64,000 nucleotides of DNA from Ginsengibacter sp. (GTDB taxonomy: Bacteria > Bacteroidota > Bacteroidia > Chitinophagales > Chitinophagaceae): positions 28,142-92,141 of the forward strand of contig JBQCFI010000289.1 of NCBI GenBank assembly GCA_051959325.1, written 5' to 3'. Of this stretch, positions 7,359 to 24,103 are shown one piece after another (position 1 is the first letter of the stretch; each line of letters begins with the position of its first letter). The notes beneath the pieces were generated by a model that searched no databases, was not told where the DNA came from, and saw nothing but the letters and a program-made list of their open reading frames with translations. The translations under genes and the position numbers were made by a program.

Positions 7359-7653
7359 GCGAAGATGATAAAATATCCAGATGATAAAATCAATAACTGG
7401 TTTTTGAGTTGTAAAGATTGAGTGGGAAGAAGATGAAGCAAACTGGATTCATTATTTATTGGTGAATTTCAAAATTCTTTTTTGGCGTTTATTTATAACA
7501 TAATCCAAATTCTAATAGCTGCATAGATATTGTATCCTTTTTAGCAGGTTTTTATTAGCAATCATTCACAACAGGATACAATCTCTGGATCATTTTTTTA
7601 TTTTTATAACCAACATTGCAACGGTTGTCACTTATTCAACATCGGTTATTTTA

Positions 7654-8106
7654 TTGCTTTATTCCATCATCAAAAAAAGATTTTTGTTGCAAAGAAAAAG
7701 TTGGTTGGTTTTTATTTCCCTTATTTTAACATCTGCTGTTATTGATAGTTTGAAACATATTGTAAACCGTACACGTCCTTTCATTACTTATCCTTCGATT
7801 CATAACCTGGTAAATGTTTCAACGGCTTCATTTCCTTCGGGGCATACCGGCGAAGTTTTTGTGTTGCCAACCGCAATTACACTTCTTTTTCAGAAACGGA
7901 AATGGTGCGTTTTAGTTGTTTGGATATGGGCATTTCTTGTTGCTTATACCCGCTTGGTTTTAGGGGTTCATTATCCAAGTGATGTTTTAGCTTCCGTAGT
8001 TATTGGAACAGGCATCGGTATTGCTTTTCCGCAATTCTTAATTAAGCGTGGCTTTCTTCAGCATCATATTCGTTGGGAACGATTATATTCAAAGCGGAAG
8101 GAATAA
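7654..8106 (+). CDS. PAP2-family membrane phosphatase #1 (start uncertain, possibly pseudogene)
   Basis: KHIVNRTRP, FPSGH, TRLVLGVHYPSD; in-frame homology (IHNRIQSLDHFFIFITN) continues upstream to about 7540 with no ATG. Confidence 0.8.
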   Translation: MLYSIIKKRFLLQRKSWLVFISLILTSAVIDSLKHIVNRTRPFITYPSIHNLVNVSTASFPSGHTGEVFVLPTAITLLFQKRKWCVLVVWIWAFLVAYTRLVLGVHYPSDVLASVVIGTGIGIAFPQFLIKRGFLQHHIRWERLYSKRKE

Positions 8107-8302: not shown

Positions 8303-8654
8303 AGAATATGATACATGAGATGGAAAGTGTAGGTGTATTATGTTGTTATTTTAAACATAGCGCCCAAGCCGTTATTCATTCAAAAAGGATTGGTCTTATT
8401 CAATAAATGTTCTTTAAAATTTTTCAAATTTATCGTTGAATATTAAGGAATGCAAATTGTGTAATGCGTTCTTGTTCAAAAATTATACAGAATCAAATCA
8501 TTAGGACGCTTCGCAATGCAGAATAAAATGTTACATGTACTTATGTCAGCGCTTAGCAGAAATGAATAAAAATAACAAAGTGATTATTGAAACTGTTGCT
8601 GCTCTTGTCCTCAATGCGAACAAACTTTCGAAAAACTAAAATTAAAAATCTTCA

Positions 8655-8677
8655 ATAAAAGTGCTTTTACTGTTCTT
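8655..8677. repeat. 23-bp exact repeat, copy 1 (contains palindrome TAAAAG-TG-CTTTTA)
   Basis: ATAAAAGTGCTTTTACTGTTCTT, identical at 11303-11325. Confidence 0.85.
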
Positions 8678-8709
8678 CAAATTTTCTCCAGAATCTGTTT
8701 TTACATTTG
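8676..8709 (+). promoter_or_regulatory. Response-regulator-type direct-repeat box plus -7 box
   Basis: TTCAAATTTTCTCCAGAATC, 6 nt, TACATTTG. Confidence 0.7.
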
Positions 8710-8722
8710 AATAAAATAAAAA

Positions 8723-9151
8723 ATGAAAAAGACAAACAAAATATTATCCCTTGCTTTTGCTACCGGTATTTTTCTTGCTTCCTGCGGAAATAATACATCA
8801 AATGTTCCTGCAAATGTGAAAGCGAATTTTGAAAAAGATTTTCCAGGCGTAAATGCCAAATGGGACAAAGAAGATTCCAGTTTTGAAGCCAGTTTTAAAC
8901 AAAATAATAATACAATGTCTGCAATGTACGATGCTAATGGAAACAAATTGGAAACAGAGCAGGATATTGATGCAGCCGCAATTCCGCAAAATATAAAAGA
9001 TTATGTTTTTCAAAATTATAAAGGAAAAAACATTAAAGAAGCCATCATTACCAAAGCGAACAGCGAAGTAAATTACGAAGCGGAAGTAAAAGAAAATGAT
9101 TTACTATTTACAAAAGATGGCCAATTTATAAAGGCAACCAAGGCAGATTAA
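8723..9151 (+). CDS. PepSY-like (BLIP-like/DUF2874) lipoprotein
   Basis: Lipobox LASC; FEKDFP..AKWDKE..FEASF repeat units. Confidence 0.8.
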   Translation: MKKTNKILSLAFATGIFLASCGNNTSNVPANVKANFEKDFPGVNAKWDKEDSSFEASFKQNNNTMSAMYDANGNKLETEQDIDAAAIPQNIKDYVFQNYKGKNIKEAIITKANSEVNYEAEVKENDLLFTKDGQFIKATKAD

Positions 9152-9260
9152 AGTGTAAAATTAAAACACTGATTTTAGTATTAGTCAGAAATGAACTCAA
9201 AAGAGGAAGGGCGTATTGTCAAAAAACAAAGAACTATAGTTGTCGAATCCAAAGTCTTTC

Positions 9261-9294
9261 TTCAGAATTCCTTCAAAATTATTTTGTAATTTTT
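9261..9294 (+). promoter_or_regulatory. Direct-repeat box plus -7-like box upstream of the response regulator (autoregulation)
   Basis: TTCAGAATTCCTTCAAAATT, 6 nt, TAATTTTT. Confidence 0.65.
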
Positions 9295-9307
9295 CCAAAA
9301 ATTCGCA

Positions 9308-9979
9308 GTGAAAATATTAATTATAGAAGATGAAAAAAGCTTGAGCGAAAGTATGGCGGCATATCTTTCTTCACAGGATTATCATTGTGATATTGCTGAA
9401 GATTATGATACAGCAGTTTACAAAACTGAATACAATGATTATGATTGTATTTTGCTCGATATTACTTTGCCCGGTGGAAATGGATTAAAGATTTTGGAGC
9501 AATTAAAAGAAGACAAAAAAACGGATGGCGTACTAATTATTTCTGCAAAAAATTCTTTAGACGATAAAATAAAAGGACTAAACCTTGGTGCAGACGATTA
9601 TTTATCAAAGCCGTTTCATTTATCAGAATTAAATGCGCGTGTTGCTGCAATTATCCGAAGAAAAAAGTTTGATGGAAATTCTATTTTGCAGTTTAATAAT
9701 ATCAGCATTGATACACAAAGTAAAACAGTAATGGTAGAAAATAATCCGGTAGAACTAACAAAAAAGGAATACGAATTGTTGATTTATTTTGTTTCAAATA
9801 AAAAACGGATTATCTCCAAAGAAGCAATAGCAGAGCATCTTTGGGGAAATGACATGGCCGGAAATTTTGATTTTATTTATACCCATATCAAAAATCTACG
9901 AAAGAAATTAATGGATGCCGGAGAGGCAGATTATATCAAATCTGTGTATGGAATGGGTTATAAATTTACAACGCAATGA
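9308..9979 (+). CDS. OmpR/PhoB-family response regulator
   Basis: IIEDE, LLDITLPG phosphoacceptor, GADDYLSKPF, winged helix with SVYGMGY. Confidence 0.95.
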   Translation: MKILIIEDEKSLSESMAAYLSSQDYHCDIAEDYDTAVYKTEYNDYDCILLDITLPGGNGLKILEQLKEDKKTDGVLIISAKNSLDDKIKGLNLGADDYLSKPFHLSELNARVAAIIRRKKFDGNSILQFNNISIDTQSKTVMVENNPVELTKKEYELLIYFVSNKKRIISKEAIAEHLWGNDMAGNFDFIYTHIKNLRKKLMDAGEADYIKSVYGMGYKFTTQ

Positions 9980-11235
9980 AACTACTTGCAAAATACAATC
10001 GCGTAAATATTCCGATTACGATCATTACACTTTTGATCACTGGCATTTGTTTTTATTTTATCATCCATTATGTTTTGGTGTATCAGCTTGATAAAGATTT
10101 ATATATCGAACAACAAGAAATTATACATTACATAAAGGAGAAAGGAACTTTACCGGAAACCTCCAACTATAAAGACCAGCAAATTGAATTTCACTCCACA
10201 AAAAATGGTGATTTTAAAAGTAAATTTTCGACAACAGAAGTTTATGATAAAAAAGAAAACGAATCGGATATATTCAGAAAATTGGATTTTTTTGTAACAA
10301 TTAATGGTAACAATTATATAGCAGAAGTAAAAAAATCACAAGAGGAAACAGAAGATATTATTCAGATGATTTTAGTAATTACTTTTTCTGTAATTATTTT
10401 TTTACTTCTCGTACTTTTTATTGCTAATCGGTTTCTACTGGCTAAAATATGGAAACCATTTAATCATACTTTAGCACAGCTAAAACAATTTAATCTTTCT
10501 TCTAAAAATAAAATTGTACTTCAGCAAACGGACATTAATGAGTTTGATGAACTAAATGAAACGGTACTTTTTATGACTGAAAAAGTAAGCAGGGATTATG
10601 AATCTCTGAAAAATTTTACAGAAAATGCTTCCCATGAAATACAAACTCCTTTATCTATCATAAAAAATAAAATTGAATTGTTGTTGCAATCAGAAAATCT
10701 TGATAAAACCCAGGTCAATGCAATTCAAAGTTTAAACGATGCCGCTTCCCGGCTTTCCAAATTAAATCAGTCTTTATTGCTGCTTGCAAAGATTGAAAAT
10801 CATCAGTTTGAAAACGGCGAAAAAATTAATTTTTCATTTTTGCTGAACAGTTGTATTGAAAATTATGAAGAACTGGCAACGATTAAAAATATCAGCATTG
10901 AAAAAAATATTGCTGAAAATATATTTATAGAAATAAATGATTCACTTGCAGAAATTCTGATTTCGAATATTATTTTGAATGCGATAAAACACAATTACCA
11001 AAACGGGAACATAAAAATTCAACTTGCCTCAAACTCAATAATAGTAAGCAATACCGGCGATGCGCCACATGAAAATACCGCAAGATTGTTCGAGCGTTTT
11101 AAAAAAGATTCTTCTTCCTCTGATTCAATTGGGCTTGGATTAGCGATTGTAAAAACAATCTGTGATACTTATGGATTCATTATTTCCTATTATTATAAAG
11201 AAGATATGCATATAGTAAAAATTATTTTTCATTAA
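9976..11235 (+). CDS. Sensor histidine kinase
   Basis: Two TM helices, ASHEIQTPL H-box, NAIKHN N-box, GLGLAIV G-box; ATGA overlap with the regulator. Confidence 0.95.
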   Translation: MKLLAKYNRVNIPITIITLLITGICFYFIIHYVLVYQLDKDLYIEQQEIIHYIKEKGTLPETSNYKDQQIEFHSTKNGDFKSKFSTTEVYDKKENESDIFRKLDFFVTINGNNYIAEVKKSQEETEDIIQMILVITFSVIIFLLLVLFIANRFLLAKIWKPFNHTLAQLKQFNLSSKNKIVLQQTDINEFDELNETVLFMTEKVSRDYESLKNFTENASHEIQTPLSIIKNKIELLLQSENLDKTQVNAIQSLNDAASRLSKLNQSLLLLAKIENHQFENGEKINFSFLLNSCIENYEELATIKNISIEKNIAENIFIEINDSLAEILISNIILNAIKHNYQNGNIKIQLASNSIIVSNTGDAPHENTARLFERFKKDSSSSDSIGLGLAIVKTICDTYGFIISYYYKEDMHIVKIIFH

Positions 11236-11302
11236 TCATGAATGTGACACAGCCTTTACAAGCAAATAAAGTATTCAATTTATTATTAAAATTGAAATCA
11301 TC

Positions 11303-11325
11303 ATAAAAGTGCTTTTACTGTTCTT
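11303..11325. repeat. 23-bp exact repeat, copy 2
   Basis: Identical to 8655-8677. Confidence 0.85.
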
Positions 11326-11492
11326 TCCTGAGTACTCAGACTTTCGCATAAACACTTTTACATCCTGATTAGGATGCTTCATTTTCAAGACAATTTTTTT
11401 ATCATATTTTTTTAAATTTCTAAAAATTTTTTAATAAAAAATGAGGCGTTTTTTATAGCATTCACTTTTTTTTAAAAAAGGTTTCCTGTTTC

Positions 11493-11526
11493 TTCAAATT
11501 CTCTTCAGATTCAGTATTTAGGTTTG
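11493..11526 (+). promoter_or_regulatory. Direct-repeat box plus -7 box
   Basis: TTCAAATTCTCTTCAGATTC, 6 nt, TAGGTTTG. Confidence 0.72.
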
Positions 11527-11559
11527 TATAAAATTATTCATAATTAAAAATTCAAAACA

Positions 11560-12009
11560 ATGAAAAAAGTATTAGGTTTTACAGCAATTATGCTTGCATT
11601 AACCGCCACTTCCTTTGCTCAGGAAAATGAAGGCGGGCATCAAAAAATAAGTGTGCCGGCTGTGGTTAAAAAAGCCAATATGGATAAGTATCCGGAATCA
11701 AAAACCCAAAAAGTAACCTGGGAAAAAGAGAAAGGAAATTACGAAGCCAACTGGGGTGGCAAAGATGGAGAAGCGAACTCTGTTCAATACACGCCATCGG
11801 GAAAATTTATAGAAATAGTAAAAGCGATTCCAACAAAAGATTTGCCTCAAGGTGTTGTAACTTATGCAAAAGAACATTATAAAACCACTAAATTTGGCGA
11901 TGTTGGAAGAGCAACAGATGCCAATGGAAAAGTTTCTTATGAAGTAGAAATTCATGGTAAAGATGTGATCTTTGATGAGAATGGAAATTTTGTAAAAGAA
12001 GATAAATAA
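11560..12009 (+). CDS. Secreted PepSY-like domain protein
   Basis: Signal peptide; VTWEKEKGNYEANW and YEVEI..KDVIFD..GNF PepSY-like repeats. Confidence 0.8.
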   Translation: MKKVLGFTAIMLALTATSFAQENEGGHQKISVPAVVKKANMDKYPESKTQKVTWEKEKGNYEANWGGKDGEANSVQYTPSGKFIEIVKAIPTKDLPQGVVTYAKEHYKTTKFGDVGRATDANGKVSYEVEIHGKDVIFDENGNFVKEDK

Positions 12010-12025
12010 TAAATCTCTCGCTAAT

Positions 12026-12063
12026 AAGCTATCTCGTTCCAGGAATGGGATAGCTTTTGTTTT
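12026..12063 (+). terminator. Intrinsic terminator between the PepSY gene and tolC
   Basis: AAGCTATCTCGTTC-cag-GAATGGGATAGCTT followed by TTGTTTT. Confidence 0.7.
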
Positions 12064-12069
12064 ATAAAA

Positions 12070-13314
12070 ATGAATATGAGGTATTTTATAATAATTTTAG
12101 GTTTTCTTTCGCCGATATTTTCTTTTGGGCAAAACAAGGACCTTGATTATTTTATCAATAAATCGCTTACAAACGATCCCAGGATTTCAGAGATTCAGAA
12201 TTTAATTTTAGCAAATAAAGTTGACAGCGCCTTAATTGTTGCAGGAAATAAAGCCCAGGTTACAGGAAACGGAAATGCTTACTATGCGCCGGTTATAAAC
12301 GGTTGGGGTTATGATGTTCCCATCACCAACGGTCAGCAACTTTCTGCATTAGTTGCCTTGAATAAACAGATTTATAACAAGCGAAATTTGAGCTTGCAAT
12401 TCAAAAGTTTGCAATTGCAAAATGATTCATTGACCAATTTTATTGCTATCAGTAAACAGGATATTAAGAAGGCTATTATTACTCAATATATTACCACTTA
12501 TGGCGATCAGCTTCAATTAGATTTTAATGATCAGTTGATTGCTCTTCTATCTCAGGAAGAACAATTATTAAAAGCACTTACGCAGAAAAATGTTTATAAA
12601 CAGGCAGATTATTTATCATTTTTGGTAACGCTTCAGCAGCAACAATTAACCAGGAACCAATTGTTTGTTCAATATAAAAATAATTATGCAACGCTTAATT
12701 ATCTTGCAGGCATTGTTGATACAACTACTGAAACCCTTGCTGTACCAGAGATCCAGATAAAATCTAATTTTTATAACGGAAATTCTCCTTTTATTTTAAA
12801 TTATAAAATAGACAGCCTGCGCCTTGAGAACGAACGTGCTATCGTTAAATATCAATACCGTCCAAAAGTAAATCTCTTTGCTGATGCCGGTTATCAATCT
12901 ACTTTTGCAATAACTCCTTATAAAAATTTCGGTTATAGTTTTGGGATCAATCTTACGGTTCCGATTTATGACGGTCATCAAAAGAGATTGCAGTTTACGA
13001 AACTGGACATCCAGGAAAGAACAAGGCAAAAGCAAAGAAATTTTTTTTACAACCAATACCAGCAGCAGATTCTTCAATTGCAACAACAATTGAACGACCT
13101 TCAAAACCTTGCTGGGCCTGTGAATAAACAAATTGAATACCTGGAAGCGCTGATAAAAGTTAATGGAAAATTATTGGAAAAAGGTGATATCAGAATTACC
13201 GATTATGTGCTTGCTTTGAATAATTATATCACCGCAAAAAACCTAATTGTTCAGAATCAGATTGAGCGATACCAGGTAATCCAGCAACTCAATTATTGGA
13301 ATATGAAATTGTAA
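12070..13314 (+). CDS. TolC-family outer membrane efflux protein
   Basis: Signal peptide, Gln/Leu coiled coils, NLTVPIYDG strand, position in the RND operon. Confidence 0.85.
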   Translation: MNMRYFIIILGFLSPIFSFGQNKDLDYFINKSLTNDPRISEIQNLILANKVDSALIVAGNKAQVTGNGNAYYAPVINGWGYDVPITNGQQLSALVALNKQIYNKRNLSLQFKSLQLQNDSLTNFIAISKQDIKKAIITQYITTYGDQLQLDFNDQLIALLSQEEQLLKALTQKNVYKQADYLSFLVTLQQQQLTRNQLFVQYKNNYATLNYLAGIVDTTTETLAVPEIQIKSNFYNGNSPFILNYKIDSLRLENERAIVKYQYRPKVNLFADAGYQSTFAITPYKNFGYSFGINLTVPIYDGHQKRLQFTKLDIQERTRQKQRNFFYNQYQQQILQLQQQLNDLQNLAGPVNKQIEYLEALIKVNGKLLEKGDIRITDYVLALNNYITAKNLIVQNQIERYQVIQQLNYWNMKL

Positions 13315-13337
13315 AAAATGGATTTTAATCAAATCAA

Positions 13338-14285
13338 ATGAAAAGATATTTTGTAAAATCAGTTTTCGCATTATTTGTTTGTTTACTGCTTTTTGCCAGT
13401 TGCAAAACAAAGGACACAACCACTACAGATACTCCTGCAGAAGTTCGTGTATCTGTTACCGTTACATCTGTTTCTTTTGAACCATTGCAACAATACATCG
13501 ACCTGAATGCCACTTCCACTTTTCTCCGACAAAATTTTGTAAAATCAAACCTGAATGGTTACATACAAAAGGCGACTATCAAATTCGGCGATTATGTTAA
13601 TCGCGGCAGGGTTTTGTTTGTTTTAAAAACAAAAGAGGCAGCAGCAATTGGTAATTCGGTAAATAAATTAGATTCTAATTTTAATTTTTCCGGAGTGAAT
13701 GTGGTACGCGCCGATGCCTCCGGTTATGTAATGCAGGTCAATCACCAGGCAGGGGATTATGTGCAGGATGGCGAACAACTTGCTGTGATCAATGATTCTA
13801 AAAGTTTTGTTTTTGTGATGAATGTTCCTTACGAATACAAGCCCTACGTTTCTACCGGAAAGCAGGTGCAGCTTACTTTACCGGACGGTGAAAAATTATG
13901 GGGAACGGTAAAACCTTCTTTGCCAATAATGGATTCTGCTTCACAAACACAGGCGGTTTCATTGAATGTAAATTCTCCTCATCCTATTCCTGTAAATTTA
14001 GTTGCGAAAGTGCAGCTTTTAAAAGCATTAAAAACAGCCGCACCAACTTTAGATAAGAAAGCAGTTTTATCTGATGAAACAGAAACCAATTTTTGGGTAA
14101 TGAAAATGATCAATGATAGCACGGCTATAAAAGTGCCGGTAAAAACAGGAATAGAATCAGGCGCTAAAATAGAAATTATTTCTCCTGCTTTTCAGCCAAA
14201 CGATAAAATCTTATTGTCCGGAAATTATGGATTGGAAGACACGACAAAAGTGATTGTTCAAAAAGATTCGAGCGGTATTAAATAG
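13338..14285 (+). CDS. RND periplasmic adaptor (MFP) lipoprotein
   Basis: Lipobox FASC; ADASGYV, GDYVQDGE lipoyl-like motif; PVKTG. Confidence 0.88.
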   Translation: MKRYFVKSVFALFVCLLLFASCKTKDTTTTDTPAEVRVSVTVTSVSFEPLQQYIDLNATSTFLRQNFVKSNLNGYIQKATIKFGDYVNRGRVLFVLKTKEAAAIGNSVNKLDSNFNFSGVNVVRADASGYVMQVNHQAGDYVQDGEQLAVINDSKSFVFVMNVPYEYKPYVSTGKQVQLTLPDGEKLWGTVKPSLPIMDSASQTQAVSLNVNSPHPIPVNLVAKVQLLKALKTAAPTLDKKAVLSDETETNFWVMKMINDSTAIKVPVKTGIESGAKIEIISPAFQPNDKILLSGNYGLEDTTKVIVQKDSSGIK

Positions 14286-14314
14286 GCGTTCAAAAAAATA
14301 ATCGCATAAATAAC

Positions 14315-17300
14315 ATGAAAAATTTTTTCACCACATATAAAAGTCCGATGACCGTTGTTCTGGCAATGATCATTTTGGGCGGCGCATTTGCTTATACCAA
14401 ATTGCAAACGTCTTTATTTCCTGAAATTACTTTTCCTAAAATAAAAATTATTGCTGATGCGGGTTTGCAACCGGTTGATAAAATGATGGTAACTGTAACC
14501 CGTCCATTAGAATTAGCGATTAAAAAAATCCCGGACCTGACAGACATCAGAAGCATTACAAGCCGTGGCAGTTGCGAGATTTCAGCTTTTATTGATTGGA
14601 AAGCGAATGTAGATTTGAGTCAGCAAAGAATAGAATCAAGAATTGCCGAAATCAGAAATACCCTTCCGCCGGATGTAAATATCACGGTTGAGAAAATGAA
14701 TCCATCCATTTTACCGGTGATGGGCTATTCATTAGAGAGCCATGAACTATCACCGATAGAATTAAAACAACTGGCGCTTTATACCATCAAACCCTACCTG
14801 AGCCAGGTTCCCGGTGTTTCTGAGATAAGAGTAATTGGTGGAAAAACAAAGGAATACTGGATACAACTGGATCTGCAAAAAATGAGTACGCTCGGCCTTA
14901 CTCCCGAAGCAATCAACACTGCCTTGAGCCAAACAAATTTTATTCAATCAAACGGATATTTATCTGATTACCGCCATCTTTATTTAACCCTTACGAATGC
15001 TTCTGTTACATCACTCAATCAATTAAAAAATGTTGTGATCAGCAATAATGGCAAACGTGCTGTTCAGTTGCAGGACATTGCAAACATACAGGTAAAAGAA
15101 GCAGTTGAATACATAAAAGTAAACGCGAACGGTAAGGAAAGCGTTCTCATTGCTGTGGTAAAACAACCAAATAGTAATCTGATTGATGTGTCTCAATTAA
15201 TGAAAGAAAAAATCGCAGCGCTCCAAAATATTCTTCCAAAAGGGGTAACGCTGAAACCTTATTATGTTCAGGCAGATTTTGTAAATACTTCTGTAAAAAG
15301 TGTTACGGATAGTTTATGGATTGGATTGGTTTTAGCAATTATTGTCGTTATCATTTTTTTAAAATCTTTTAAAGCAAGCGCGACGATTTTAATCACGATT
15401 CCTGTTACGCTTGGCGCTACTTTAATTTCGCTGTATGCTGTTGGATACACCTTAAATATTATGACGCTTGGCGCTATTGCAGCCTCGCTTGGATTAATTA
15501 TTGATGATGCGATTGTGGTGCTTGAACAAATACACCGAACTCATGAAGAAAATCCCGGTGAAGAATATAAAACGATTGTACAAAAAGCAGTTCATTATTT
15601 GTTTCCGGCAATGGTTGGTTCTTCTATAAGCACGATCGTAATTTTTATTCCATTCATTCTGATGAGCGGCGTTGCCGGCGCCTATTTTAATGTGCTTACC
15701 AATACGATGATCATTACATTGGTTTGCTCATTTTTTGTAACGTGGCTGGGACTTCCGGTGGTTTATCTTTTATTTTCTAAGAAAAAAAAATCAGAAAAAA
15801 TTGTTACTCAAAAAGAAAAAAAGAAAAAAGAAAAACAACTTCAGTTAGAGAAAAAAGAAAAGAACTGGGTTACGTTTTTTGTTCTCCGGCCTTGGATCAG
15901 TTTCATATTTGTAGGGCTTTTGATTCTTTCTATTGTATTAATTGTATCAAGATTGCAAACTGGTTTTCTACCAAATATGGATGAAGGAACGATTGTGCTT
16001 GATTATTCCTCTCTTCCCGGAACGTCTTTGGAAGAAACGGATAAAGAATTGCAACAGGTAGAAAAAATTATAGTATCCACGCCCGAAGTAAGCGCCTATT
16101 CGCGACGCACCGGAACACAGATGGGATTTTTTATTACAGAACCAAACAGGGGCGATTATGAGATTCAATTAAAAGATAAAAGAAATAAAACAACAGATCA
16201 GGTAATAGAAGAAATCCGCAAAAGAATAGAAGCATCACAGCCCGCATTGCGGGTGGATTTTGGCCAGGTAATCAGTGATATGCTTGGCGATCTGATGACA
16301 TCTGTTCAACCGATAGAGATAAAAATATTTGGAGATGATTTAGAGAAAATAAAAACGCTTTCAACAAAGGTTGCAAACGTGATTGAAAATATAAAAGGTA
16401 CTGCTGATGTTTTTAATGGAATTACTATAGCAGGCCCTTCCGTTATGGTTACGCCGGATTATTTTAGAATTGCTCAATTTGGAATTACACCTGCTGATCT
16501 CCAGTACCAATTGCAAACTTCTTTGGAAGGGAATCTGGCAGGAAATATTTTTGAAAATAACCGCGTCTATGCGGTACGATTGGTTTATCCGAATAGCCAA
16601 AAGATGAGTATTGAAGATGTCAAAAAATTACAGATTGCTTCTCCGGATGGAAGGTTGAAACCAATCGGTGAATTGGCCGACGTGCAAATCAGTAAAGGCG
16701 ATGCCGAAATTGCGAGAGAAAATTTACAATCTATGGGTGTCGTTTCTGCCCGTTTGCAAAACCGCGATTTGGGAAGTACGATGAAAGAAATTCAAAATAA
16801 AATTTCCTCCAAAATTCAATTGCCGACTGGATATCATATTGAATACGGCGGCTCTTATGCGCAGCAGCAACAATCCTTTACAGAACTTTTAATGATCTTA
16901 ATTGCATCAAGTCTTTTGGTATTTGGCGTAATACTTTTTTTATTTAAAGATGCAAAAGCCGCATTCATTATTTTATTCCTTGCCGTGCTCGGAATTTCGG
17001 GAAGTTACCTTGCCTTATTTATTACCAATACACCTTTAAATGTGGGAAGCTATACAGGTTTAATTATGATTGTTGGAATTATTGGGGAAAATTCCATCTT
17101 TACTTTTCTGCAGTTTAAAGAAAACCTTCTCCATCAAAATACGGATGAATCTGTTGAAAATGCAATCTCAAAAAGGCTTCGTCCAAACCTGATGACCGCA
17201 ATTGCAGCCATCATCGCTCTTATGCCGCTTGCACTTGGAATCGGCGCTGGCGCTGAGTTGCACCAACCTCTTGCCATCGCTGTTATCGGTGGGTTTTTAA

Positions 17301-17386
17301 TCGCGCTTCCTTTATTGCTGATTGTGTTGCCTTCGTTGTTGAGGTTGTTTTATAAGAATGCAAAACAGAAAACTGCATTGCAGTAA
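14315..17386 (+). CDS. RND permease (AcrB/CusA superfamily)
   Basis: 1023 aa; LFPEI.FP, GLIIDDAIVV, RLRPNLMT, PLAIAVIGG. Confidence 0.95.
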   Translation: MKNFFTTYKSPMTVVLAMIILGGAFAYTKLQTSLFPEITFPKIKIIADAGLQPVDKMMVTVTRPLELAIKKIPDLTDIRSITSRGSCEISAFIDWKANVDLSQQRIESRIAEIRNTLPPDVNITVEKMNPSILPVMGYSLESHELSPIELKQLALYTIKPYLSQVPGVSEIRVIGGKTKEYWIQLDLQKMSTLGLTPEAINTALSQTNFIQSNGYLSDYRHLYLTLTNASVTSLNQLKNVVISNNGKRAVQLQDIANIQVKEAVEYIKVNANGKESVLIAVVKQPNSNLIDVSQLMKEKIAALQNILPKGVTLKPYYVQADFVNTSVKSVTDSLWIGLVLAIIVVIIFLKSFKASATILITIPVTLGATLISLYAVGYTLNIMTLGAIAASLGLIIDDAIVVLEQIHRTHEENPGEEYKTIVQKAVHYLFPAMVGSSISTIVIFIPFILMSGVAGAYFNVLTNTMIITLVCSFFVTWLGLPVVYLLFSKKKKSEKIVTQKEKKKKEKQLQLEKKEKNWVTFFVLRPWISFIFVGLLILSIVLIVSRLQTGFLPNMDEGTIVLDYSSLPGTSLEETDKELQQVEKIIVSTPEVSAYSRRTGTQMGFFITEPNRGDYEIQLKDKRNKTTDQVIEEIRKRIEASQPALRVDFGQVISDMLGDLMTSVQPIEIKIFGDDLEKIKTLSTKVANVIENIKGTADVFNGITIAGPSVMVTPDYFRIAQFGITPADLQYQLQTSLEGNLAGNIFENNRVYAVRLVYPNSQKMSIEDVKKLQIASPDGRLKPIGELADVQISKGDAEIARENLQSMGVVSARLQNRDLGSTMKEIQNKISSKIQLPTGYHIEYGGSYAQQQQSFTELLMILIASSLLVFGVILFLFKDAKAAFIILFLAVLGISGSYLALFITNTPLNVGSYTGLIMIVGIIGENSIFTFLQFKENLLHQNTDESVENAISKRLRPNLMTAIAAIIALMPLALGIGAGAELHQPLAIAVIGGFLIALPLLLIVLPSLLRLFYKNAKQKTALQ

Positions 17387-17497
17387 ACAAAGGAATAAGA
17401 AGGATTCTTATTTTCTTTTTGATAAATTAATTAAAGATGAAAAATTTATAAGCATTTCTTGCAGGGGAAAAATTCTACATTCGCCAATCATCGCGAT

Positions 17498-17893
17498 ATG
17501 AATTTTATTAGAATTTTAAAAGTAAAAGCCTCAAAATTAAAATCTGAAATACAGGTTTTGATGATTGCTTACAAAGATCATCGCACACCTTTAAGAGCAA
17601 AGATATTGATCGGCATAACCGTTGGTTATTTATTAAGTCCAATTGATTTAATCCCTGATTTTATTCCGGTAATCGGCTTGTTAGATGATTTAATAATAAT
17701 ACCAATTTTAATTTCGGTTTCAATAAAGCTGATTCCAGCAACAGTATTGAACGATGCAAGAGAAAAGGCGAAAAATACTGCGCAGATTTATAAAAAAACA
17801 AATTGGGGGTTCGCAATTGTGATCATAATAATTTGGCTGGCACTGATATTTTTTGTCTATAAAAAACTACTCATTTTTAAGAAGAGAAATTAA
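17498..17893 (+). CDS. DUF1232/YkvA-family membrane protein
   Basis: YLLSPIDLIPDFIPVIGLLDD signature; ATG 17498 follows a TACATTCG -7-like box. Confidence 0.88.
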   Translation: MNFIRILKVKASKLKSEIQVLMIAYKDHRTPLRAKILIGITVGYLLSPIDLIPDFIPVIGLLDDLIIIPILISVSIKLIPATVLNDAREKAKNTAQIYKKTNWGFAIVIIIIWLALIFFVYKKLLIFKKRN

Positions 17894-17948
17894 AACAGAA
17901 ATCGTTTTTTCTTAGTAAACAAACTAATAAGTAAGATTTCTGTTTTTT
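17892..17948 (+). terminator. Long hairpin with U-tract after DUF1232
   Basis: AAAACAGAAATC...GATTTCTGTTTT arms. Confidence 0.55.
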
Positions 17949-18006
17949 AGGGAAAATTATCAATCTAATCCTGCTCAGGCTTTTAAATTATTTTCTTTTA
18001 TAAGTA

Positions 18007-18040
18007 TTCAGATTTTCTTTAGAATCTTTGTCTTTCTTTG
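18007..18040 (+). promoter_or_regulatory. Direct-repeat box plus degenerate -7 box upstream of PAP2 #2
   Basis: TTCAGATTTTCTTTAGAATC, 6 nt, TTTCTTTG. Confidence 0.55.
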
Positions 18041-18064
18041 AAAAAAAAAAAATTAAAATAAGAA

Positions 18065-18616
18065 ATGTCATTGTACGATTACGACCGGCATCTGCTTGAA
18101 TGGATCAATCATAACAGAATATTTTATTTAGATAATTTTTTCAGATTCATTACAGATACTGCAGGAGCCATCGCGGCCGCAATCGCAGTCCTTATTATTA
18201 TTTATGGATTCATCAAAAAAAACGGTTTTTTAAAATACAGAAAATATCAGGTTGCATTTGCATTTTCTATCAACGCAATTGTTATCAATATTCTTAAATA
18301 TTCAATCAACAGGCCACGGCCTTTTGCAGTTGATAAATATATTGAAAAATTAACCGGTGCCGGCAGCCCTTCTTTTCCATCGGGGCACACCGGCGATGCA
18401 ATGATAGTGGCTATTTCAATGTGTTTACTATTTGCCAGGCAAACGTGGCTGCTTGCCATTATCTGGATTTGGGCGGTTGCGGTTGCTTATTCGAGGATGG
18501 CATTAGGCGTTCATTATCCGGGCGATATCTTAGGTTCAGTAGTTATTAGTTTGATAGTGGCTTTTGCTTCTCAAAAAGTTTTTAACAAAATAACGATCAG
18601 TCAAAATAATAAATAA
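18065..18616 (+). CDS. PAP2-family membrane phosphatase #2
   Basis: KYSINRPRP, FPSGH, SRMALGVHYPGD. Confidence 0.92.
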   Translation: MSLYDYDRHLLEWINHNRIFYLDNFFRFITDTAGAIAAAIAVLIIIYGFIKKNGFLKYRKYQVAFAFSINAIVINILKYSINRPRPFAVDKYIEKLTGAGSPSFPSGHTGDAMIVAISMCLLFARQTWLLAIIWIWAVAVAYSRMALGVHYPGDILGSVVISLIVAFASQKVFNKITISQNNK

Positions 18617-18670
18617 ATTGACATAAAAAAAATAAGAGAATAATATGGTTTTTGAAATAAAAATTAATTT

Positions 18671-19321
18671 ATGAATTTGTATCAAAAAAAAACCGAACAC
18701 GAACAGAAAATTACAGCAATCTTTATTGATATTGGCGGTGTATTACTTACCGATGGCTGGAACCGTCAATGTCGGAAAAACGCTGCCTCAACATTTGAGT
18801 TGGACATTGACGATCTGGAAGAAAGACATCATCTTACTTTCGATACCTATGAGGAAGGAAAATTAAGTTTGGATGAGTATCTGAAAAGAATTGTTTTTTA
18901 TAAAGACCGCAGTTTCACAATGGATGAATTTAAGGAATTTATGTTTGCTCAATCGAAAGCTCATCCCGAAATGATCAAAAGCATATCCCTGTTAAAAGAA
19001 AAATATGGATTGAAAGTAGCAGTTATCAGTAACGAGGGACGTGAACTAACTGAGTTTAGAATAAAAAAATTTGAGCTAAATAAGTTTGTAGATTTTTTTA
19101 TTTCTTCATCCTTTGTTCATTTACGAAAACCTGACATAGATATTTTTAGAATGGCATTGGATATTGCGCAGGTAGAAGAAAAAGATGTAGTTTATATTGA
19201 AGACAGACCGATGTTTGTACAGGTGGCAGAAGGATTGGGCATTCATGGCATTCAGCGTATAGATCACAATTCTACCATGGAGAAATTAAAGTTATTTGGC
19301 TTACAGTTAGAAGAAGATTAG
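18671..19321 (+). CDS. HAD-superfamily hydrolase (subfamily IA)
   Basis: IFIDIGGVL motif I, ISN motif II, RKPD..IF, YIED motif IV. Confidence 0.9.
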   Translation: MNLYQKKTEHEQKITAIFIDIGGVLLTDGWNRQCRKNAASTFELDIDDLEERHHLTFDTYEEGKLSLDEYLKRIVFYKDRSFTMDEFKEFMFAQSKAHPEMIKSISLLKEKYGLKVAVISNEGRELTEFRIKKFELNKFVDFFISSSFVHLRKPDIDIFRMALDIAQVEEKDVVYIEDRPMFVQVAEGLGIHGIQRIDHNSTMEKLKLFGLQLEED

Positions 19322-19368
19322 AATTGTTATTAAATACTCCTCATTTTGATTATATAGAAAGTATAAAT

Positions 19369-19672
19369 ATGAATTACGACGAAATTATTACTCAATGCTT
19401 AGGTTTTAAAACCCAGCATGAACTTGAAAACTATTTAAATGAACTTTTTAAAAATTATTCTTTTAGTGAAGAAATGGAAATGTTGTAATCAATTGAAAAA
19501 AAAAGTATGGCAGATGGCACATGAAAATAATTTAGATGATGAAGTAATAGATTATATTGGCTTTAGTACTTCAACTGAAGAGGCAGAAATTGGATGTACT
19601 TCACACTTAAAGAATCCTGAAGATGCTTATCCTGGTATATTGCATTGGATAAATGGAAAAGCAAAGCAATGA
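19369..19672 (+). pseudogene. Frameshifted hypothetical gene
   Basis: ATG 19369 frame stops at TAA 19486-88; removing one base in TTGTAAT joins it to ...NQLKKKVWQMAHE..., ending at 19672. Confidence 0.5.
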
Positions 19673-19709
19673 TTTATTCGTTTTGAGCAATATTGGAATA
19701 AAGCATTAT

Positions 19710-19846
19710 TTAAGTTTTAGAATTATATAATTTCAATTCAAATTCCTAATTAATAAAGCTAGCATCCGCCCTGTAAGGCTACCAGGGATATCCACCTATT
19801 ACATCGCCAGGAAAATGAGCTCAAGATAAACCCTGCTGCAGCATAC
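19710..19846 (-). pseudogene. Decayed 3' fragment of a PAP2 gene (copy of the 3' end of 21553-22140)
   Basis: Shares TTACATCGCCAGGAAAATGA, AGATAAACCC and AATTTCAATTCAA with the 21553-21690 region and the same ...KT* end. Confidence 0.8.
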
Positions 19847-19878
19847 CTGGGATTCGATTATGTAAAATAAAATGGCAA

Positions 19879-20982
19879 TTATTTTTTGACTCCAATAATA
19901 ATAGCATTTGCTACAGGATGATTGGCAGTAAATTTTAATCCTAAAAGTGAAGCAATTGTTTGTGCAAATTGCTTTTGATAAATCTGCATTTCTGTTTTTA
20001 ATTCACCTTTTGCAGGAATATCTGGCCCCATTACTGCAAACCATATCTCATTTGCGCCAGGAATATCACTTCCGTGGCTTGTCCATTGATTTTTATTATT
20101 ATCGCCGCGTCCATGGTCAACTGTAATGAATAATGAAGTTTTGTTCTTGTATTGCGGCTCACTTTGAATATAATTCCAAATGTCTTTTACCCATGCATCA
20201 AACTGATGCGCCGATTCCAGATAATCTTTGTAGTGACCTGCATGCGCCCATTCATCAGTTTCGCCATAAGCGATGTAAAGTAGCTTCGGCTTTTTGGTTT
20301 TCAAATATTCCATTGCTTCATATTGGGTAAACACATCAAGACATTCATCCATATCCCAGGGTTTATAAGAATCTCTGAGCATGGCATTAATCATCTTTTC
20401 TTTCGACGTTGCATTTTTTCCACCTGTTGGCGCAAATGCGGCTATTACCGGAAATCCGCAACGCGGTTTATTTAAAATTCTGTCGAAGGCTTCCCATGCG
20501 CCAAAAGCTGCAACACTATTTTTGAATTTCGGTTGCTTATTAATAAACTCCAAAACATTGGTATTGGGATTATTTTTATAATTGTTGGAATTAATTAACG
20601 TATCTACATAACCACAAAATATTTCGCTGTAGCCTGGATACGAGAACCAGTAAGGGTTTGAATTATTCACCTTATTTCCAAAAATACGATTTCCATATAT
20701 TTGTCCGTTTGCTGCAATCGTATTCCAAAGAAAAGGGAGCAATTTTTTTCTTCTCTCAGAAACATCGTTCGCCCAATATTTTTTAAAGATAAAAGTGCTG
20801 TCGCCCTGATTATATTTTCTGCGATTTGCAATCGCAGAATCCATTCCGCCAAATGCCTCCTGCCAGCGAAAACCATCAGTAGTGATGATTATGATATTTT
20901 CTGTTTTTTGCTGCGCAAAAGAAGGTTTTATGTTGGTTAAAAAAACAAACATAAGCAGCCACAAGATTTTAGGTTTTTTCAT
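19879..20982 (-). CDS. Secreted alkaline-phosphatase-superfamily metalloenzyme (phosphoglyceromutase-like)
   Basis: Signal peptide from ATG 20982 (MKKPKILW); IITTDGFRWQE, SYPGYSE, GETDEWAH, TVDHG. The track's extension to 21195 overlaps EamA and is judged spurious. Confidence 0.85.
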   Translation of the reverse strand: MKKPKILWLLMFVFLTNIKPSFAQQKTENIIIITTDGFRWQEAFGGMDSAIANRRKYNQGDSTFIFKKYWANDVSERRKKLLPFLWNTIAANGQIYGNRIFGNKVNNSNPYWFSYPGYSEIFCGYVDTLINSNNYKNNPNTNVLEFINKQPKFKNSVAAFGAWEAFDRILNKPRCGFPVIAAFAPTGGKNATSKEKMINAMLRDSYKPWDMDECLDVFTQYEAMEYLKTKKPKLLYIAYGETDEWAHAGHYKDYLESAHQFDAWVKDIWNYIQSEPQYKNKTSLFITVDHGRGDNNKNQWTSHGSDIPGANEIWFAVMGPDIPAKGELKTEMQIYQKQFAQTIASLLGLKFTANHPVANAIIIGVKK

Positions 20983-21134
20983 TATTAGTATTATTATTAA
21001 AAGTATTATTATTAAATTACTACAATAAAGATGACAACATTTTTTTGAAAATACAGCCTCAGAAACATCAAAACAACGTCTCTTTTTTAAAAACAGTACA
21101 GCAGTTTTACGAAAAAGCCGAAAAAAAGCAATCT

Positions 21135-21548
21135 TTATAAAATCAAAACAAGGCCTCCACCAATAATCAATAATGCGCCAATTGCGGTTCTCCATGTTAA
21201 TGGTTCTCCTAAAAATACTACCGCTAAGATTATTGCAATCGCAACACTCATTTTATCAATCGGCGCTACCTGCGATACTTCACCTAATTGAAGCGCCTTG
21301 AAATAAAATATCCATGAAAGGCCTGTGGCAACACCCGATAAGCAAAGAAAAATAATATTTTGTTTAGTTAGCGAATGCATTGTGTAAGCGCCGCCCCTGA
21401 TAAATGCAATGCCCCAGGCAATGATTAAAATAACAATTGTTCGAATGGCTGTCGCCAAATCGGTATCCACTCCTTTGATGCCTACTTTTGCGAAGATGGC
21501 TGTCAATGCTGCAAATAAAGCAGCAAGTAAGGCATATATCCACCACAT
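21135..21548 (-). CDS. Single-domain EamA/DMT-family transporter
   Basis: ALFAALTAIFAKVG, LATAIRT, SWIFYFKAL, VAPIDKMS, FLGE. Confidence 0.9.
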   Translation of the reverse strand: MWWIYALLAALFAALTAIFAKVGIKGVDTDLATAIRTIVILIIAWGIAFIRGGAYTMHSLTKQNIIFLCLSGVATGLSWIFYFKALQLGEVSQVAPIDKMSVAIAIILAVVFLGEPLTWRTAIGALLIIGGGLVLIL

Positions 21549-21552
21549 AATT

Positions 21553-22140
21553 TTAAGTTTTAAGTTTATAAAATTTCAATTCAAGCTGTTGATAAATTAG
21601 TGCAAACATCCATCCTGTAAAACTACCAAAGAAGATTCCTCCAATTACATCGCCAGGAAAATGAACACCGAGATAAACCCGGCTATAGCAGACTAATAAT
21701 GCCCATGCAAAAAGCAAATAAGGAAACCATTTAATTTTTTGTTTTGTAATTAATGTAAGGTAAATAGTCAGACCGCTTACATTACAGGCATGAGCGGAAA
21801 TAAAACCAACCTGTCCTCCGCGATAATTGTTTACATAATGTAATAAATTTTCAATGCCGGGAATATGGCTTGGCCGCAATCTTATTTCCATTGATCTTAT
21901 AACCGTTGATGCAATCTGATCGGTACAAACAACTAAAGGAATAATTAGAAGAATTAGAAGCCAGCTTTTTTTACGGTAATAAAATATCAGCAGAAGAATC
22001 AGCAAAAAATAAAACGGATACCAGGAAGTTTCTCCGCTTGCGAACCACATAATTTTGTCCCAGAATAAATTATGATGACTGTTTATCAGCAACAATAGTT
22101 GTTTGTCCCAATAATTAATCCATCGAAGAAATGCCTGCAT
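21553..22140 (-). CDS. PAP2-family membrane phosphatase #3
   Basis: RSMEIRLRP, FISAH (PSGH variant), SRVYLGVHFPGD. Confidence 0.9.
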   Translation of the reverse strand: MQAFLRWINYWDKQLLLLINSHHNLFWDKIMWFASGETSWYPFYFLLILLLIFYYRKKSWLLILLIIPLVVCTDQIASTVIRSMEIRLRPSHIPGIENLLHYVNNYRGGQVGFISAHACNVSGLTIYLTLITKQKIKWFPYLLFAWALLVCYSRVYLGVHFPGDVIGGIFFGSFTGWMFALIYQQLELKFYKLKT

Positions 22141-22741
22141 CTTTTAAAAAATTTTGTTTAATAAAAACCCGGCTGATTATAACAGCTAAGCCGGAACTGA
22201 TAATCATAGAAGCAATGACATCACTTGGATAATGGACACCTAAAACAACCCGTGAATATGCTACCATAAACGCCCATATCCAGATTAAAAACAACCACAC
22301 ATTTTGTTTTGGAAATAAAATACTCAGGGAAGTTGCAATTAAAAAGGCATCTGCTGTGTGTCCGGATGGAAAAGAAGGGCTGCCACCACCTGATAGCTTT
22401 TCTATAAATGAATCCACTTCATAAGGCCGCTGCCGGTTTACCACCTGTTTAATGATTTCTATTATTATCGTATTAATGCCAAGGGAAATGAGTATCAGCC
22501 AGCTTTGCCTTTTTAATTTAAACCGATGTTTTACGAAGGCATATATCAAAAGAAAGACCGGTATTGCATAAGCTACAATATAAGAAGTGTTGGTGATGAA
22601 AATAAAAAAACCATCTAACGGCTTTATTCTTTCATGATTGATGAATTCTAAAAGTTGTAAATCCATTTCATACAATACACGAAAAAAATGTGCAAGAAGA
22701 AAGAAAAGAAAATGTGTGAAGGAAAGATAGAATGTGTGCAC
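22115..22741 (-). CDS. PAP2-family membrane phosphatase #4
   Basis: KQVVNRQRP, FPSGH, SRVVLGVHYPSD; start is GTG 22741 or ATG 22666. Confidence 0.9.
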   Translation of the reverse strand: MHTFYLSFTHFLFFLLAHFFRVLYEMDLQLLEFINHERIKPLDGFFIFITNTSYIVAYAIPVFLLIYAFVKHRFKLKRQSWLILISLGINTIIIEIIKQVVNRQRPYEVDSFIEKLSGGGSPSFPSGHTADAFLIATSLSILFPKQNVWLFLIWIWAFMVAYSRVVLGVHYPSDVIASMIISSGLAVIISRVFIKQNFLKDAGISSMD

Positions 22742-22775
22742 GCCTATAAGATTTAAATTTTATGATTTAAATAAT

Positions 22776-22828
22776 GCAGGCGCCATCAGTCCCTTTCGGG
22801 ACGGTTATACAGGAAGGCTCCATTTCCA
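22776..22828 (-). ncRNA. Fluoride riboswitch (crcB motif) #3
   Basis: Minus strand GGAAATGGAGCCTTCC-TGTATAACC-GTCCC GAAA GGGAC-TGATGGCGCCTGC: same layout as the copies before CLC and crcB; one A-G mismatch in the pseudoknot. Confidence 0.8.
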
Positions 22829-22836
22829 AAAGTCGG

Positions 22837-22844
22837 CAAATATA
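22837..22844 (-). promoter_or_regulatory. -7 box TATATTTG just upstream of riboswitch #3
   Basis: Matches TAnnTTTG about 9 nt before the aptamer GG. Confidence 0.65.
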
Positions 22845-22907
22845 AAAGGATTATGATAAATGAGCTTTTTAATTTCCGACATAAAGTCTAAACAAATATT
22901 TACAGGC

Positions 22908-22941
22908 CAAAACTAAAATCGAATTCTGTTAAGAATCTGAA
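22908..22941 (-). promoter_or_regulatory. Direct-repeat box plus -7 box (second, upstream promoter of the PAP2 cluster)
   Basis: Minus strand TTCAGATTCTTAACAGAATT, 6 nt, TAGTTTTG. Confidence 0.68.
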
Positions 22942-23281: not shown

Positions 23282-24103
23282 ATGGCTTTGAAACTGATTA
23301 TTAAAAATAAAATTGGCACGGAAAGGACTATAAAAATTTCACCTTTCAAAAAAGATATAAGGAAAACAAATCCTCATAAGCACAATAATTATTTTGAAAT
23401 TATTTATCTCTCAAACGGCAGTGGCTTTCATTACATTGACCAGAATAAATATCTTATTAAACCGCCTGTCCTGTTTTTTATCAGACAGGAACAGGTTCAT
23501 TATTGGGAATTAGAAAATGAACCGGAAGGTTATGTACTGATTATCAAAAAAAACTTTATTGGAAGAAGTCTCGATAATGAACTTAAATCCTTATTCACAA
23601 GAATTTCCAGCCAATGTTGTTTGCAGATAACAGAGACGGGAACTATAGAACAGATAATGCAATTACTTGCTGAAGAAAGCAAAGCAGATGATGAAAGTGT
23701 ATTTCATATAATGGAAGGTTTGCTAAAATCTTTGTTAGCTAAAATATTGCAGGTATCCCAACAGGTTATTAATAGTGCAGAAGTTAAATCCGACACTTAT
23801 CATTCTTTTACTGAATTATTGAGAGCAGGCAGTGGCATAAAAAACAAAGTGGCATTTTATGCCGAGAATCTCAACACGTCCCCACAAAACTTAAATGCGG
23901 TTTGCCGTAAAGCAACCAATCAATCAGCAGCGGATGTTCTATCAGCATTTGTATTAAATGAGGCAAAAAGGCTATTGCTCTATACAAATAATACCATTTC
24001 GGAAATTGCCTTTGCTCTTGAATTTACCGACCCTTCTCATTTTGTAAAATATTTTAAAAAGCATGTAGGAGCCACACCCAAAGCTTTCCGAAATAGCAAT
24101 TAA
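23282..24103 (+). CDS. AraC-family transcriptional regulator
   Basis: N-terminal cupin (PHKHNNYFEIIY); C-terminal EAKRLLLYT..TISEIAFALEF.DPSHFVKYFKK. Confidence 0.93.
   Translation: MALKLIIKNKIGTERTIKISPFKKDIRKTNPHKHNNYFEIIYLSNGSGFHYIDQNKYLIKPPVLFFIRQEQVHYWELENEPEGYVLIIKKNFIGRSLDNELKSLFTRISSQCCLQITETGTIEQIMQLLAEESKADDESVFHIMEGLLKSLLAKILQVSQQVINSAEVKSDTYHSFTELLRAGSGIKNKVAFYAENLNTSPQNLNAVCRKATNQSAADVLSAFVLNEAKRLLLYTNNTISEIAFALEFTDPSHFVKYFKKHVGATPKAFRNSN

Follow-up and report, generated by a model that had tools for sequence, protein, structure and literature searches.

A direct-repeat box 6 nt upstream of -7 elements as the predicted operator of an OmpR/PhoB-family response regulator with a PorY-family kinase in Ginsengibacter sp.

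In E. coli, the OmpR/PhoB-type dimer of PhoB binds the pho box, two direct repeats phased by 11 bp that replace the -35 element and lie 10 nucleotides (nt) from the -10 element, and PhoB autoregulates its own operon. The PmrA/BasR-PmrB system of Enterobacteria also uses direct-repeat boxes, and its regulon remodels envelope lipid by means of enzymes of the phosphatase and transferase types together with small flippase subunits that resemble EamA. A third system, BqsR/CarR-BqsS of Pseudomonas aeruginosa, is associated with PepSY-type genes. BqsR activates from the repeat TTAAG-N6-TTAAG, whose period is 11 nt and which lies across the polymerase site; autoregulation is also seen in this system, whose regulon confers protection from cationic stress (PMC4358008). 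In Acinetobacter baumannii, the OmpR-type regulator of AdeRS-AdeABC binds a direct repeat, and the RND pump operon lies beside the two-component system (PMC5766154). Here we describe five 20-nt direct-repeat boxes in a stretch of 64,000 nt of Ginsengibacter sp. DNA (hereafter the window), which also encodes an OmpR/PhoB-family response regulator, its sensor histidine kinase, PepSY-like proteins, an RND pump and PAP2 phosphatases (Table 1). The promoters of Bacteroidota (-33/-7) depart from the E. coli model, and to our knowledge very few operators of response regulators have been described in this phylum.

We propose that the boxes are very probably the operators of the phosphorylated response regulator encoded at 9308-9979. 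The switch is textbook in mechanism and not surprising in concept; the proposed operator is new and well supported. It would share with the pho box all of the features listed above except the spacing, with the -33 element in place of the -35, but its half-site is (C)TTCARAWT rather than CTGTCAT, its gap to the downstream promoter element is 6 nt rather than 10, its promoters are of the Bacteroidota -7 TAnnTTTG type and its targets are not phosphate genes. The nearest solved relatives of the regulator are DrrD of T. maritima, BasR/PmrA, RegX3 and PhoP of M. tuberculosis, among which BasR/PmrA and PhoP bind direct repeats. BasR is the nearest after DrrD and the nearest that has been characterised (E ~1e-36); however, the regulator is not its orthologue, the box sequence differs and no arn or eptA orthologues were identified. 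For BqsR/CarR, only the CarR receiver domain is found among the solved relatives (E 2e-21), the half-site is TTAAG as opposed to TTCAR here, and the PepSY-like proteins of the window are soluble or lipoprotein members of PF11396. Where AdeRS has one intercistronic site, this locus has at least five, together with a PepSY-like gene followed by a leaky terminator and with PAP2 targets. The regulator lies below the equivalog cut-offs of PhoB (TIGR02154, 176.1 vs 296.2), Bacteroidetes PhoB (NF053854, 174.2 vs 270), PmrA (NF007928, 176.3 bits, cut-off 330) and RprY (131, cut-off 370), and the half-site differs from all of theirs; the system does not belong to the pho, PmrA or BqsR regulons.

All five box coordinates in the initial annotation of the window were correct, and in 5/5 cases a 6-nt spacer separates the box from an octamer of the Bacteroidota -7 type. 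This octamer had been described as TAnnTTTG or a near-match, and it is perfect at boxes 1, 3 and 5 and a near-match at boxes 2 and 4. The claimed direct repeat was likewise borne out, as every box consists of two (C)TTCARAWT copies in the same orientation and phased by 11 nt, with TTCA at box positions 1 and 12 in all five, barring variants in the second repeat. In most sites the repeat unit starts one base earlier than had been drawn, which refines it to CTTCARAWT-N2-CTTCARAWT. Each box sits in the intergenic gap immediately 5' of its gene unit. While the -7 TAnnTTTG of Bacteroidota housekeeping promoters is present, a -33 TTTG at the expected 17-21 nt (~19) from the -7 element was not found in any of the five sequences, and the -33 positions correspond to box bases 2-9 (TCAAATTT and similar). 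Direct half-sites, a nearby co-conserved regulator and a fixed distance to the -7 element, with the box apparently replacing the -33 element, are what would be expected of an operator.

Table 1. Boxes, predicted promoters, genes and RNA elements of the window (C, contig of this genome; L, locus in another genome)
Feature	Position	Strand	Remarks
Box 1, TTCAAATTTTCTCCAGAATC	8676-8695	+	Spacer tgtttt, then -7 element TACATTTG (8702-8709)
Box 2, TTCAGAATTCCTTCAAAATT	9261-9280	+	Spacer attttg, then -7 element TAATTTTT (9287-9294)
Box 3, TTCAAATTCTCTTCAGATTC	11493-11512	+	Spacer agtatt, then -7 element TAGGTTTG (11519-11526)
Box 4, TTCAGATTTTCTTTAGAATC	18007-18026	+	Spacer tttgtc, then weak -7 element TTTCTTTG (18033-18040)
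Box 5, TTCAGATTCTTAACAGAATT	22941-22922	-	Spacer cgattt, then -7 element TAGTTTTG (22915-22908)
Predicted promoter of PepSY-like gene 1	8676-8709	+	Box 1, spacer, -7 element
Predicted autoregulatory promoter of the regulator-kinase operon	9261-9294	+	Box 2, spacer, -7 element
Predicted promoter of PepSY-like gene 2 and, by read-through, the RND operon	11493-11526	+	Box 3
Predicted promoter of PAP2_A and HAD	18007-18040	+	Box 4; near-identical promoter on C462
Predicted distal promoter of the PAP2_B operon	22908-22941	-	Box 5; orthologous promoters in L112 and L115
PepSY-like protein 1	8723-9151	+	PF11396; signal peptide with lipobox LASC, read from sequence
OmpR/PhoB-family response regulator	9308-9979	+	GTG start; Response_reg PF00072 and Trans_reg_C PF00486; recognition helix DFIYTHIKNLRKKL
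Sensor histidine kinase	9976-11235	+	Start overlaps regulator stop; NCBIfam 'PorY family' NF052314
PepSY-like protein 2	11560-12009	+	PF11396; signal peptide
Terminator-like hairpin, 14 bp, then T-run	12026-12056	+	Between PepSY-like 2 and OEP
OEP	12070-13314	+	Pfam/NCBIfam
Membrane-fusion protein	13338-14285	+	Pfam/NCBIfam
RND permease	14315-17386	+	Pfam/NCBIfam
DUF1232 membrane protein	17459-17893	+	Follows pump on same strand; regulon membership uncertain
PAP2 phosphatase A (PAP2_A)	18065-18616	+	Pfam/NCBIfam
HAD hydrolase	18671-19321	+	Pfam/NCBIfam
Fluoride riboswitch aptamer	22836-22770	-	RF01734, 44.7 bits, E 1e-9; between box-5 promoter and PAP2_B
PAP2_B	22741-22115	-	One operon with the three genes below
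PAP2_C	22140-21553	-	PAP2_B operon
EamA	21548-21135	-	PAP2_B operon
Sulfatase/metalloenzyme-like	21195-19879	-	PAP2_B operon

Other repeated or box-like sequences occur around box 1. The sequence TTCAAAAATTATACAGAATC at 8475-8494 (+), 200 nt 5' of box 1, resembles a box (score 16.6) without a -7 element and is either an auxiliary site or a chance match. An exact 23-nt repeat, ATAAAAGTGCTTTTACTGTTCTT, is found at 8655-8677, where it abuts box 1, and at 11303-11325, 68 nt past the kinase stop and with no box after it; the genome holds no further copy.

The five-box pattern is far beyond chance. A degenerate pattern matched seven times in the window, with 1.69 matches expected, and only one of 100 shuffles reached seven. 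An unbiased repeat finder returned boxes 1, 3 and 4 as its largest direct-repeat family, and with leave-one-out scoring over the 9.6 million positions of the draft genome that holds the window (4.8 Mb, 38% G+C, 565 contigs) these three boxes were matched only by fellow members of the set. Judged by the relatives of its proteins, this genome falls within Chitinophagaceae, close to Ginsengibacter and Hanamia. A scan for sigma-70-type promoters was uninformative (62 matches vs 66 expected), given the -7 promoters of this organism.

A search with the kinase yielded 80 related loci, mostly from Chitinophagaceae, in which the kinase is 36-76% identical. Scanning with a matrix of the sites, a check that the initial annotation had proposed, recovered the window sites and showed that the box recurs before homologues of the regulator, PepSY-like, OEP, PAP2 and EamA genes. 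The five-site matrix gave 119 matches in 2.48 million positions of the 80 loci, 87 of them just 5' of such homologues (regulator 46, PepSY-like 36, OEP 3, PAP2 1, EamA 1). A box was present in 42 of 67 regulator-upstream regions, where about 0.3 would be expected from the background of 4.8e-5 per position, and its offset from the regulator start codon is confined to -46 to -50 in 44 of the 48 box-bearing regions (67 examined). Spacing to the promoter is equally rigid: a -7 TAnnTTTG (at least 5 of the 6 specified bases) begins exactly 6 nt after the box in 78/99 related-locus boxes, as compared to 5 sites at any of 15 other spacings. The consensus of the 87 sites from other genomes, tCTTCAAatT.tCTtCAgAaTc, again consists of two (C)TTCARAWT units placed 11 nt apart, and the information content of these sites is high in the box and -7 columns and about zero in the flanks, indicating that purifying selection acts on both elements and that they are not a residue of duplication. 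A search by pattern only, using one genome per genus for 61 genera of the family, gave 41 matches against 10 in the reversed control, and its good matches again precede PAP2, PepSY-like, regulator and OEP genes. Homologues of PAP2_B in two genomes of the same genus (L112 and L115) carry a box just upstream, in L112 with the identical spacer cgattt, and these orthologous promoters support box 5, the weakest of the five.

The sites from other genomes were also used to return to this genome. A 42-nt matrix was built from these 87 sites alone; because they had been found with the five-site seed matrix, its box columns are partly dependent on the window, while its flank and -7 columns are independent. 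All five window boxes are among its top 9 of 9.6 million positions (score/rank: box 3, 45.7/1; box 2, 43.3/2; box 1, 38.9/4; box 4, 23.0/8; box 5, 20.7/9), the others being sites on contigs C525, C256, C126 and C462, after which the score drops.

In the 80 related loci, no transcription factor other than the response regulator is conserved next to the boxes. The recognition helix of this regulator, DFIYTHIKNLRKKL, is invariant across all box-bearing Chitinophagaceae loci. In Dyadobacter (L073, L075-L079) the helix is DMVYSHIKNLRRKI, and a variant TTCC box, TTCCTAAATGTTTCCAGATTC, lies about 60 nt before the regulator start with a 6-nt gap to TATTTTTG. Among 30 loci from across the phylum, boxes of the TTCC type are confined to regulators that have Y or S at one helix position, and regulators with T, A or Q there always go with TTCA. 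This co-variation is only suggestive of a tie between box and regulator.

Based on this architecture, we infer that the regulator binds the boxes and that it activates rather than represses. The two (C)TTCARAWT half-sites, 11 nt apart, would be occupied by a head-to-tail regulator dimer. With the -7 element taken to lie at roughly -12 to -5 from the predicted transcription start, the box would span about -38 to -19, the place of the absent -33 element. Since the box fills this place and a -33 TTTG is missing, the promoters are likely activator-dependent, with the dimer substituting for the -33 contact. The bound dimer would then recruit RNA polymerase, in the way known for PhoB at pho promoters and for BqsR and PmrA at their own targets. 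Four outputs would follow from this: the regulator-kinase operon would activate itself from a systematically weak promoter (TAATTTTT, a short leader and a GTG/TTG start); both secreted PepSY-like proteins would be strongly induced and might act back on the kinase; the RND efflux pump would receive attenuated read-through; and the PAP2, HAD, EamA and sulfatase-like genes would be induced, with products that probably act on envelope lipids.

Several observations weigh against this interpretation. The -7 element of box 4 is poor (TTTCTTTG), and boxes 2 and 5, taken singly, are weak: in the leave-one-out scoring about 90 positions of the genome score as high or higher. The co-variation of helix and box has one exception, L132, which combines S at the key position with a CA-type box. 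A near-identical regulator with the same helix is encoded on contig C525, and either or both regulators may use the boxes; moreover, downstream of box 5 the PAP2_B operon carries a riboswitch and another possible promoter. Finally, the box overlaps the expected place of sigma region 4, and sequence data cannot separate activation from repression, so that the same regulator could instead occlude the -33 region of otherwise constitutive promoters. We consider such repression improbable, as none of the five -7 elements has a -33 TTTG at the expected 17-21 nt, and the rigid 6-nt phasing (78/99) is typical of an activator that contacts polymerase, whereas repressors tolerate variable placement. Precedents of like geometry in the OmpR/PhoB family are also activators (PMC4358008).

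That the boxes resemble each other only as leftovers of a local duplication of a promoter module, with no operator function, is extremely unlikely. Around boxes 1, 3 and 4 the repeat family does reach a length of 62 nt, with 65-74% identity, and the PepSY-like and PAP2 genes are paralogues, yet across loci with kinases of only 40-76% identity no information is left in the flanks and conservation is confined to the box and -7 columns, and the box also precedes genes that are not paralogous to these, namely the regulator, OEP, EamA, a YncE-like propeller and a TonB-type receptor. It is also very unlikely that a different factor binds the boxes. An AraC-type regulator is encoded divergently from box 5 (23282-24103) and AraC-family proteins also use direct repeats, but in the 80 loci its gene, unlike that of the response regulator, is not retained next to the boxes. 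As for an alternative sigma factor, the element downstream of the box is the housekeeping -7 motif, and a tandem 11-nt repeat is no sigma -35 element.

The kinase that accompanies this regulator scores 473.4 bits against the PorY family model NF052314 (cut-off 350), aligning to model positions 1-418 of 418. The porY and porX genes of P. gingivalis are both orphans, with PorX being a protein of the CheY-PglZ type (PMC4800418). In contrast, the start of the kinase gene described here overlaps the stop of an OmpR-type regulator gene, so that the pair is linked and the partner is of a different type. Members of the PorY family exceeded the cut-off in 52 of 301 sampled Bacteroidota genomes, and in the 30 best-scoring loci of this sample an OmpR-type regulator, 47-64% identical to that of the window, is encoded directly upstream in 30/30. 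A core of the form TTC[AC]-N7-T[TA]C[AC] precedes the regulator in 17/29 loci phylum-wide, with about one expected; the strict tandem pattern was found in only 1/29 at this scale, so that only the loose core is conserved that far. The family also has a member in B. thetaiotaomicron, which is not known to have type IX secretion, and nothing at this locus links it to secretion genes. The 30/30 pairing with OmpR-type regulators and the B. thetaiotaomicron member together indicate that the family consists mostly of classical two-component systems and that the type IX label is not transferable.

We tentatively raise a broader possibility, that the box is the operator of a phylum-wide, experimentally untouched two-component family with a 'PorY family' kinase. 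The usual and ancestral partner of PorY-type kinases might be an autoregulated OmpR-type regulator that reads TTC[A/C]-N7-TTC[A/C] 6 nt before the -7 element and drives an envelope regulon of PepSY-like, PAP2, EamA and RND genes, as a Bacteroidota counterpart of PmrAB or BqsRS, and the PorY-PorX pair of P. gingivalis would then be a derived rewiring. If this is true, the 'type IX secretion' label on these kinases is an over-extended annotation.

What the system senses is a matter of conjecture, and cationic or metal envelope stress is our guess. Conserved positions in the sensor domain of the kinase are merely scattered (e.g., KSq.eted near the second membrane helix) and give no firm clue to a ligand. 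We weighed a heavy-metal system but did not adopt it: for the RND permease, the multidrug and CusA/CzcA models give equal scores that are under the cut-off, and neither the kinase nor the regulator reaches the heavy-metal cut-offs.

No description of the motif or the regulon was found in the literature on PepSY-like proteins and two-component systems in Bacteroidetes, on PorY with PepSY or on TAnnTTTG with response regulators. The paper on the structure of BVU2987 (PF11396) says nothing on gene context, and in a paper on the iron stimulon the PepSY-like and RND genes of B. thetaiotaomicron are merely listed as mildly induced. The value of our findings thus lies in annotation and in enabling experiments, not in the concept. 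They offer a predicted operator that is precise enough to test, (C)TTCARAWT-N2-(C)TTCARAWT with a 6-nt gap to TAnnTTTG, and a readable regulon (PepSY-like, RND, PAP2, EamA, TonB-type receptor) for a family present in about one sixth of the sampled Bacteroidota genomes. They also provide a clean case in which to study the contact between an OmpR-type activator and the unusual sigma factor of Bacteroidota, and a warning that 'PorY family' kinases are usually not components of secretion control.

The initial annotation had assigned to the regulon both PepSY-like genes, the regulator itself, the RND pump and three PAP2 genes. This claim is supported by the promoter architecture, by the co-conservation of the regulator and by the same gene families being boxed elsewhere, with three amendments: the pump would belong only via read-through of a hairpin, the predicted regulon is larger than had been stated, and one of the leaders carries a riboswitch. 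Beyond the genes named there, it may include the HAD, EamA and sulfatase-like genes, a second copy of the module (C525, C256, C462) and a TonB-type receptor (C64). The sulfatase-like protein matches Pfam Sulfatase weakly, and the PAP2 proteins score below cut-off for models of undecaprenyl-diphosphate and phosphatidylglycerophosphate phosphatases. From these assignments, the PAP2/HAD and PAP2-PAP2-EamA genes may have a role in the dephosphorylation of envelope lipid or lipid A.

The promoters of the regulon fall into recognizable types. Those of the regulator form a distinct class, with a conserved spacer cattttg and a -7 element that lacks the final G (TAATTTTT). Only about 14 nt separate this element from the start codon, which leaves a leader of only a few bases, and the start is TTG or GTG in 40/43 boxed loci; regulator genes in box-less loci mostly start with ATG. 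Promoter and start together look as if they were deliberately weak. The PepSY-like promoters carry the full TAnGTTTG and are the most constant targets across loci. It is plausible, if speculative, that the PepSY-like proteins feed back on the kinase in the manner of CpxP or MgrB.

Further genes are boxed in other genomes, encoding a YncE-like beta-propeller, a DUF347 protein and a CarboxypepD_reg-Plug-OMP_b-brl_3 receptor. The propeller is a secreted protein of 335 residues whose boxed gene is divergent from the regulator (L016, L026, L037, L049, L050, L071), and the DUF347 membrane protein is boxed in one relative (L035).

The strong terminator-like hairpin between PepSY-like gene 2 and the pump leaves only 13 nt to the OEP start codon, and with a hairpin so near this start the pump would depend on read-through. 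A like hairpin is found in most orthologous loci (L007, L009, L012, L019, L022, L025, L032, L035, L038, L058, L066) with differing stem sequences, and this retention of structure without stem sequence indicates that attenuation is a conserved feature. In a few related loci the box lies directly before OEP. These data suggest that the hairpin acts as a built-in attenuator, which may set a high ratio of PepSY-like protein to pump or may permit conditional read-through.

The leader from the box-5 promoter to PAP2_B is 167 nt long and contains the fluoride riboswitch aptamer, immediately preceded by a second perfect -7 element, TATATTTG (22844-22837, -). The PAP2_B operon in this genome thus seems to have two inputs. 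Rfam found no fluoride riboswitch in nine other PAP2_B homologue loci, comprising seven homologues from same-genus genomes, a second homologue of one of these genomes and the C462 paralogue of this genome. As same-genus PAP2_B loci are boxed (L112, L115) and free of the riboswitch, the leader that combines box and riboswitch appears particular to this genome.

Parts of the module recur on small contigs of the same draft genome. A second regulator-kinase pair at C525:1439 has its own box and an identical recognition helix, and its kinase passes the PorY-family cut-off; a boxed PepSY-like gene is found at C256:3587 and a boxed PAP2-PAP2-EamA operon at C462:7497. These parts are either a paralogue, which would imply operator cross-talk, or a second strain in the genome bin, for which contamination is estimated at 2.8%. 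Another candidate site, at C64:3073 (-), precedes a gene for a CarboxypepD_reg-Plug-OMP_b-brl_3 (TonB-type) receptor of 829 residues, homologues of which are boxed in L038 and L067. A site at C126:3223 (+), before PanD-like and ATP-grasp-like genes, is doubtful.

A fourth PAP2 copy is present in the window at 7540-8106 (+). The alignment of this copy starts only at residue 34 with PAP2_B and only at residue 6 with PAP2_A. As it also carries no box and offers none of the codons ATG, GTG or TTG before 7654, it is probably a 5'-truncated, decaying paralogue.

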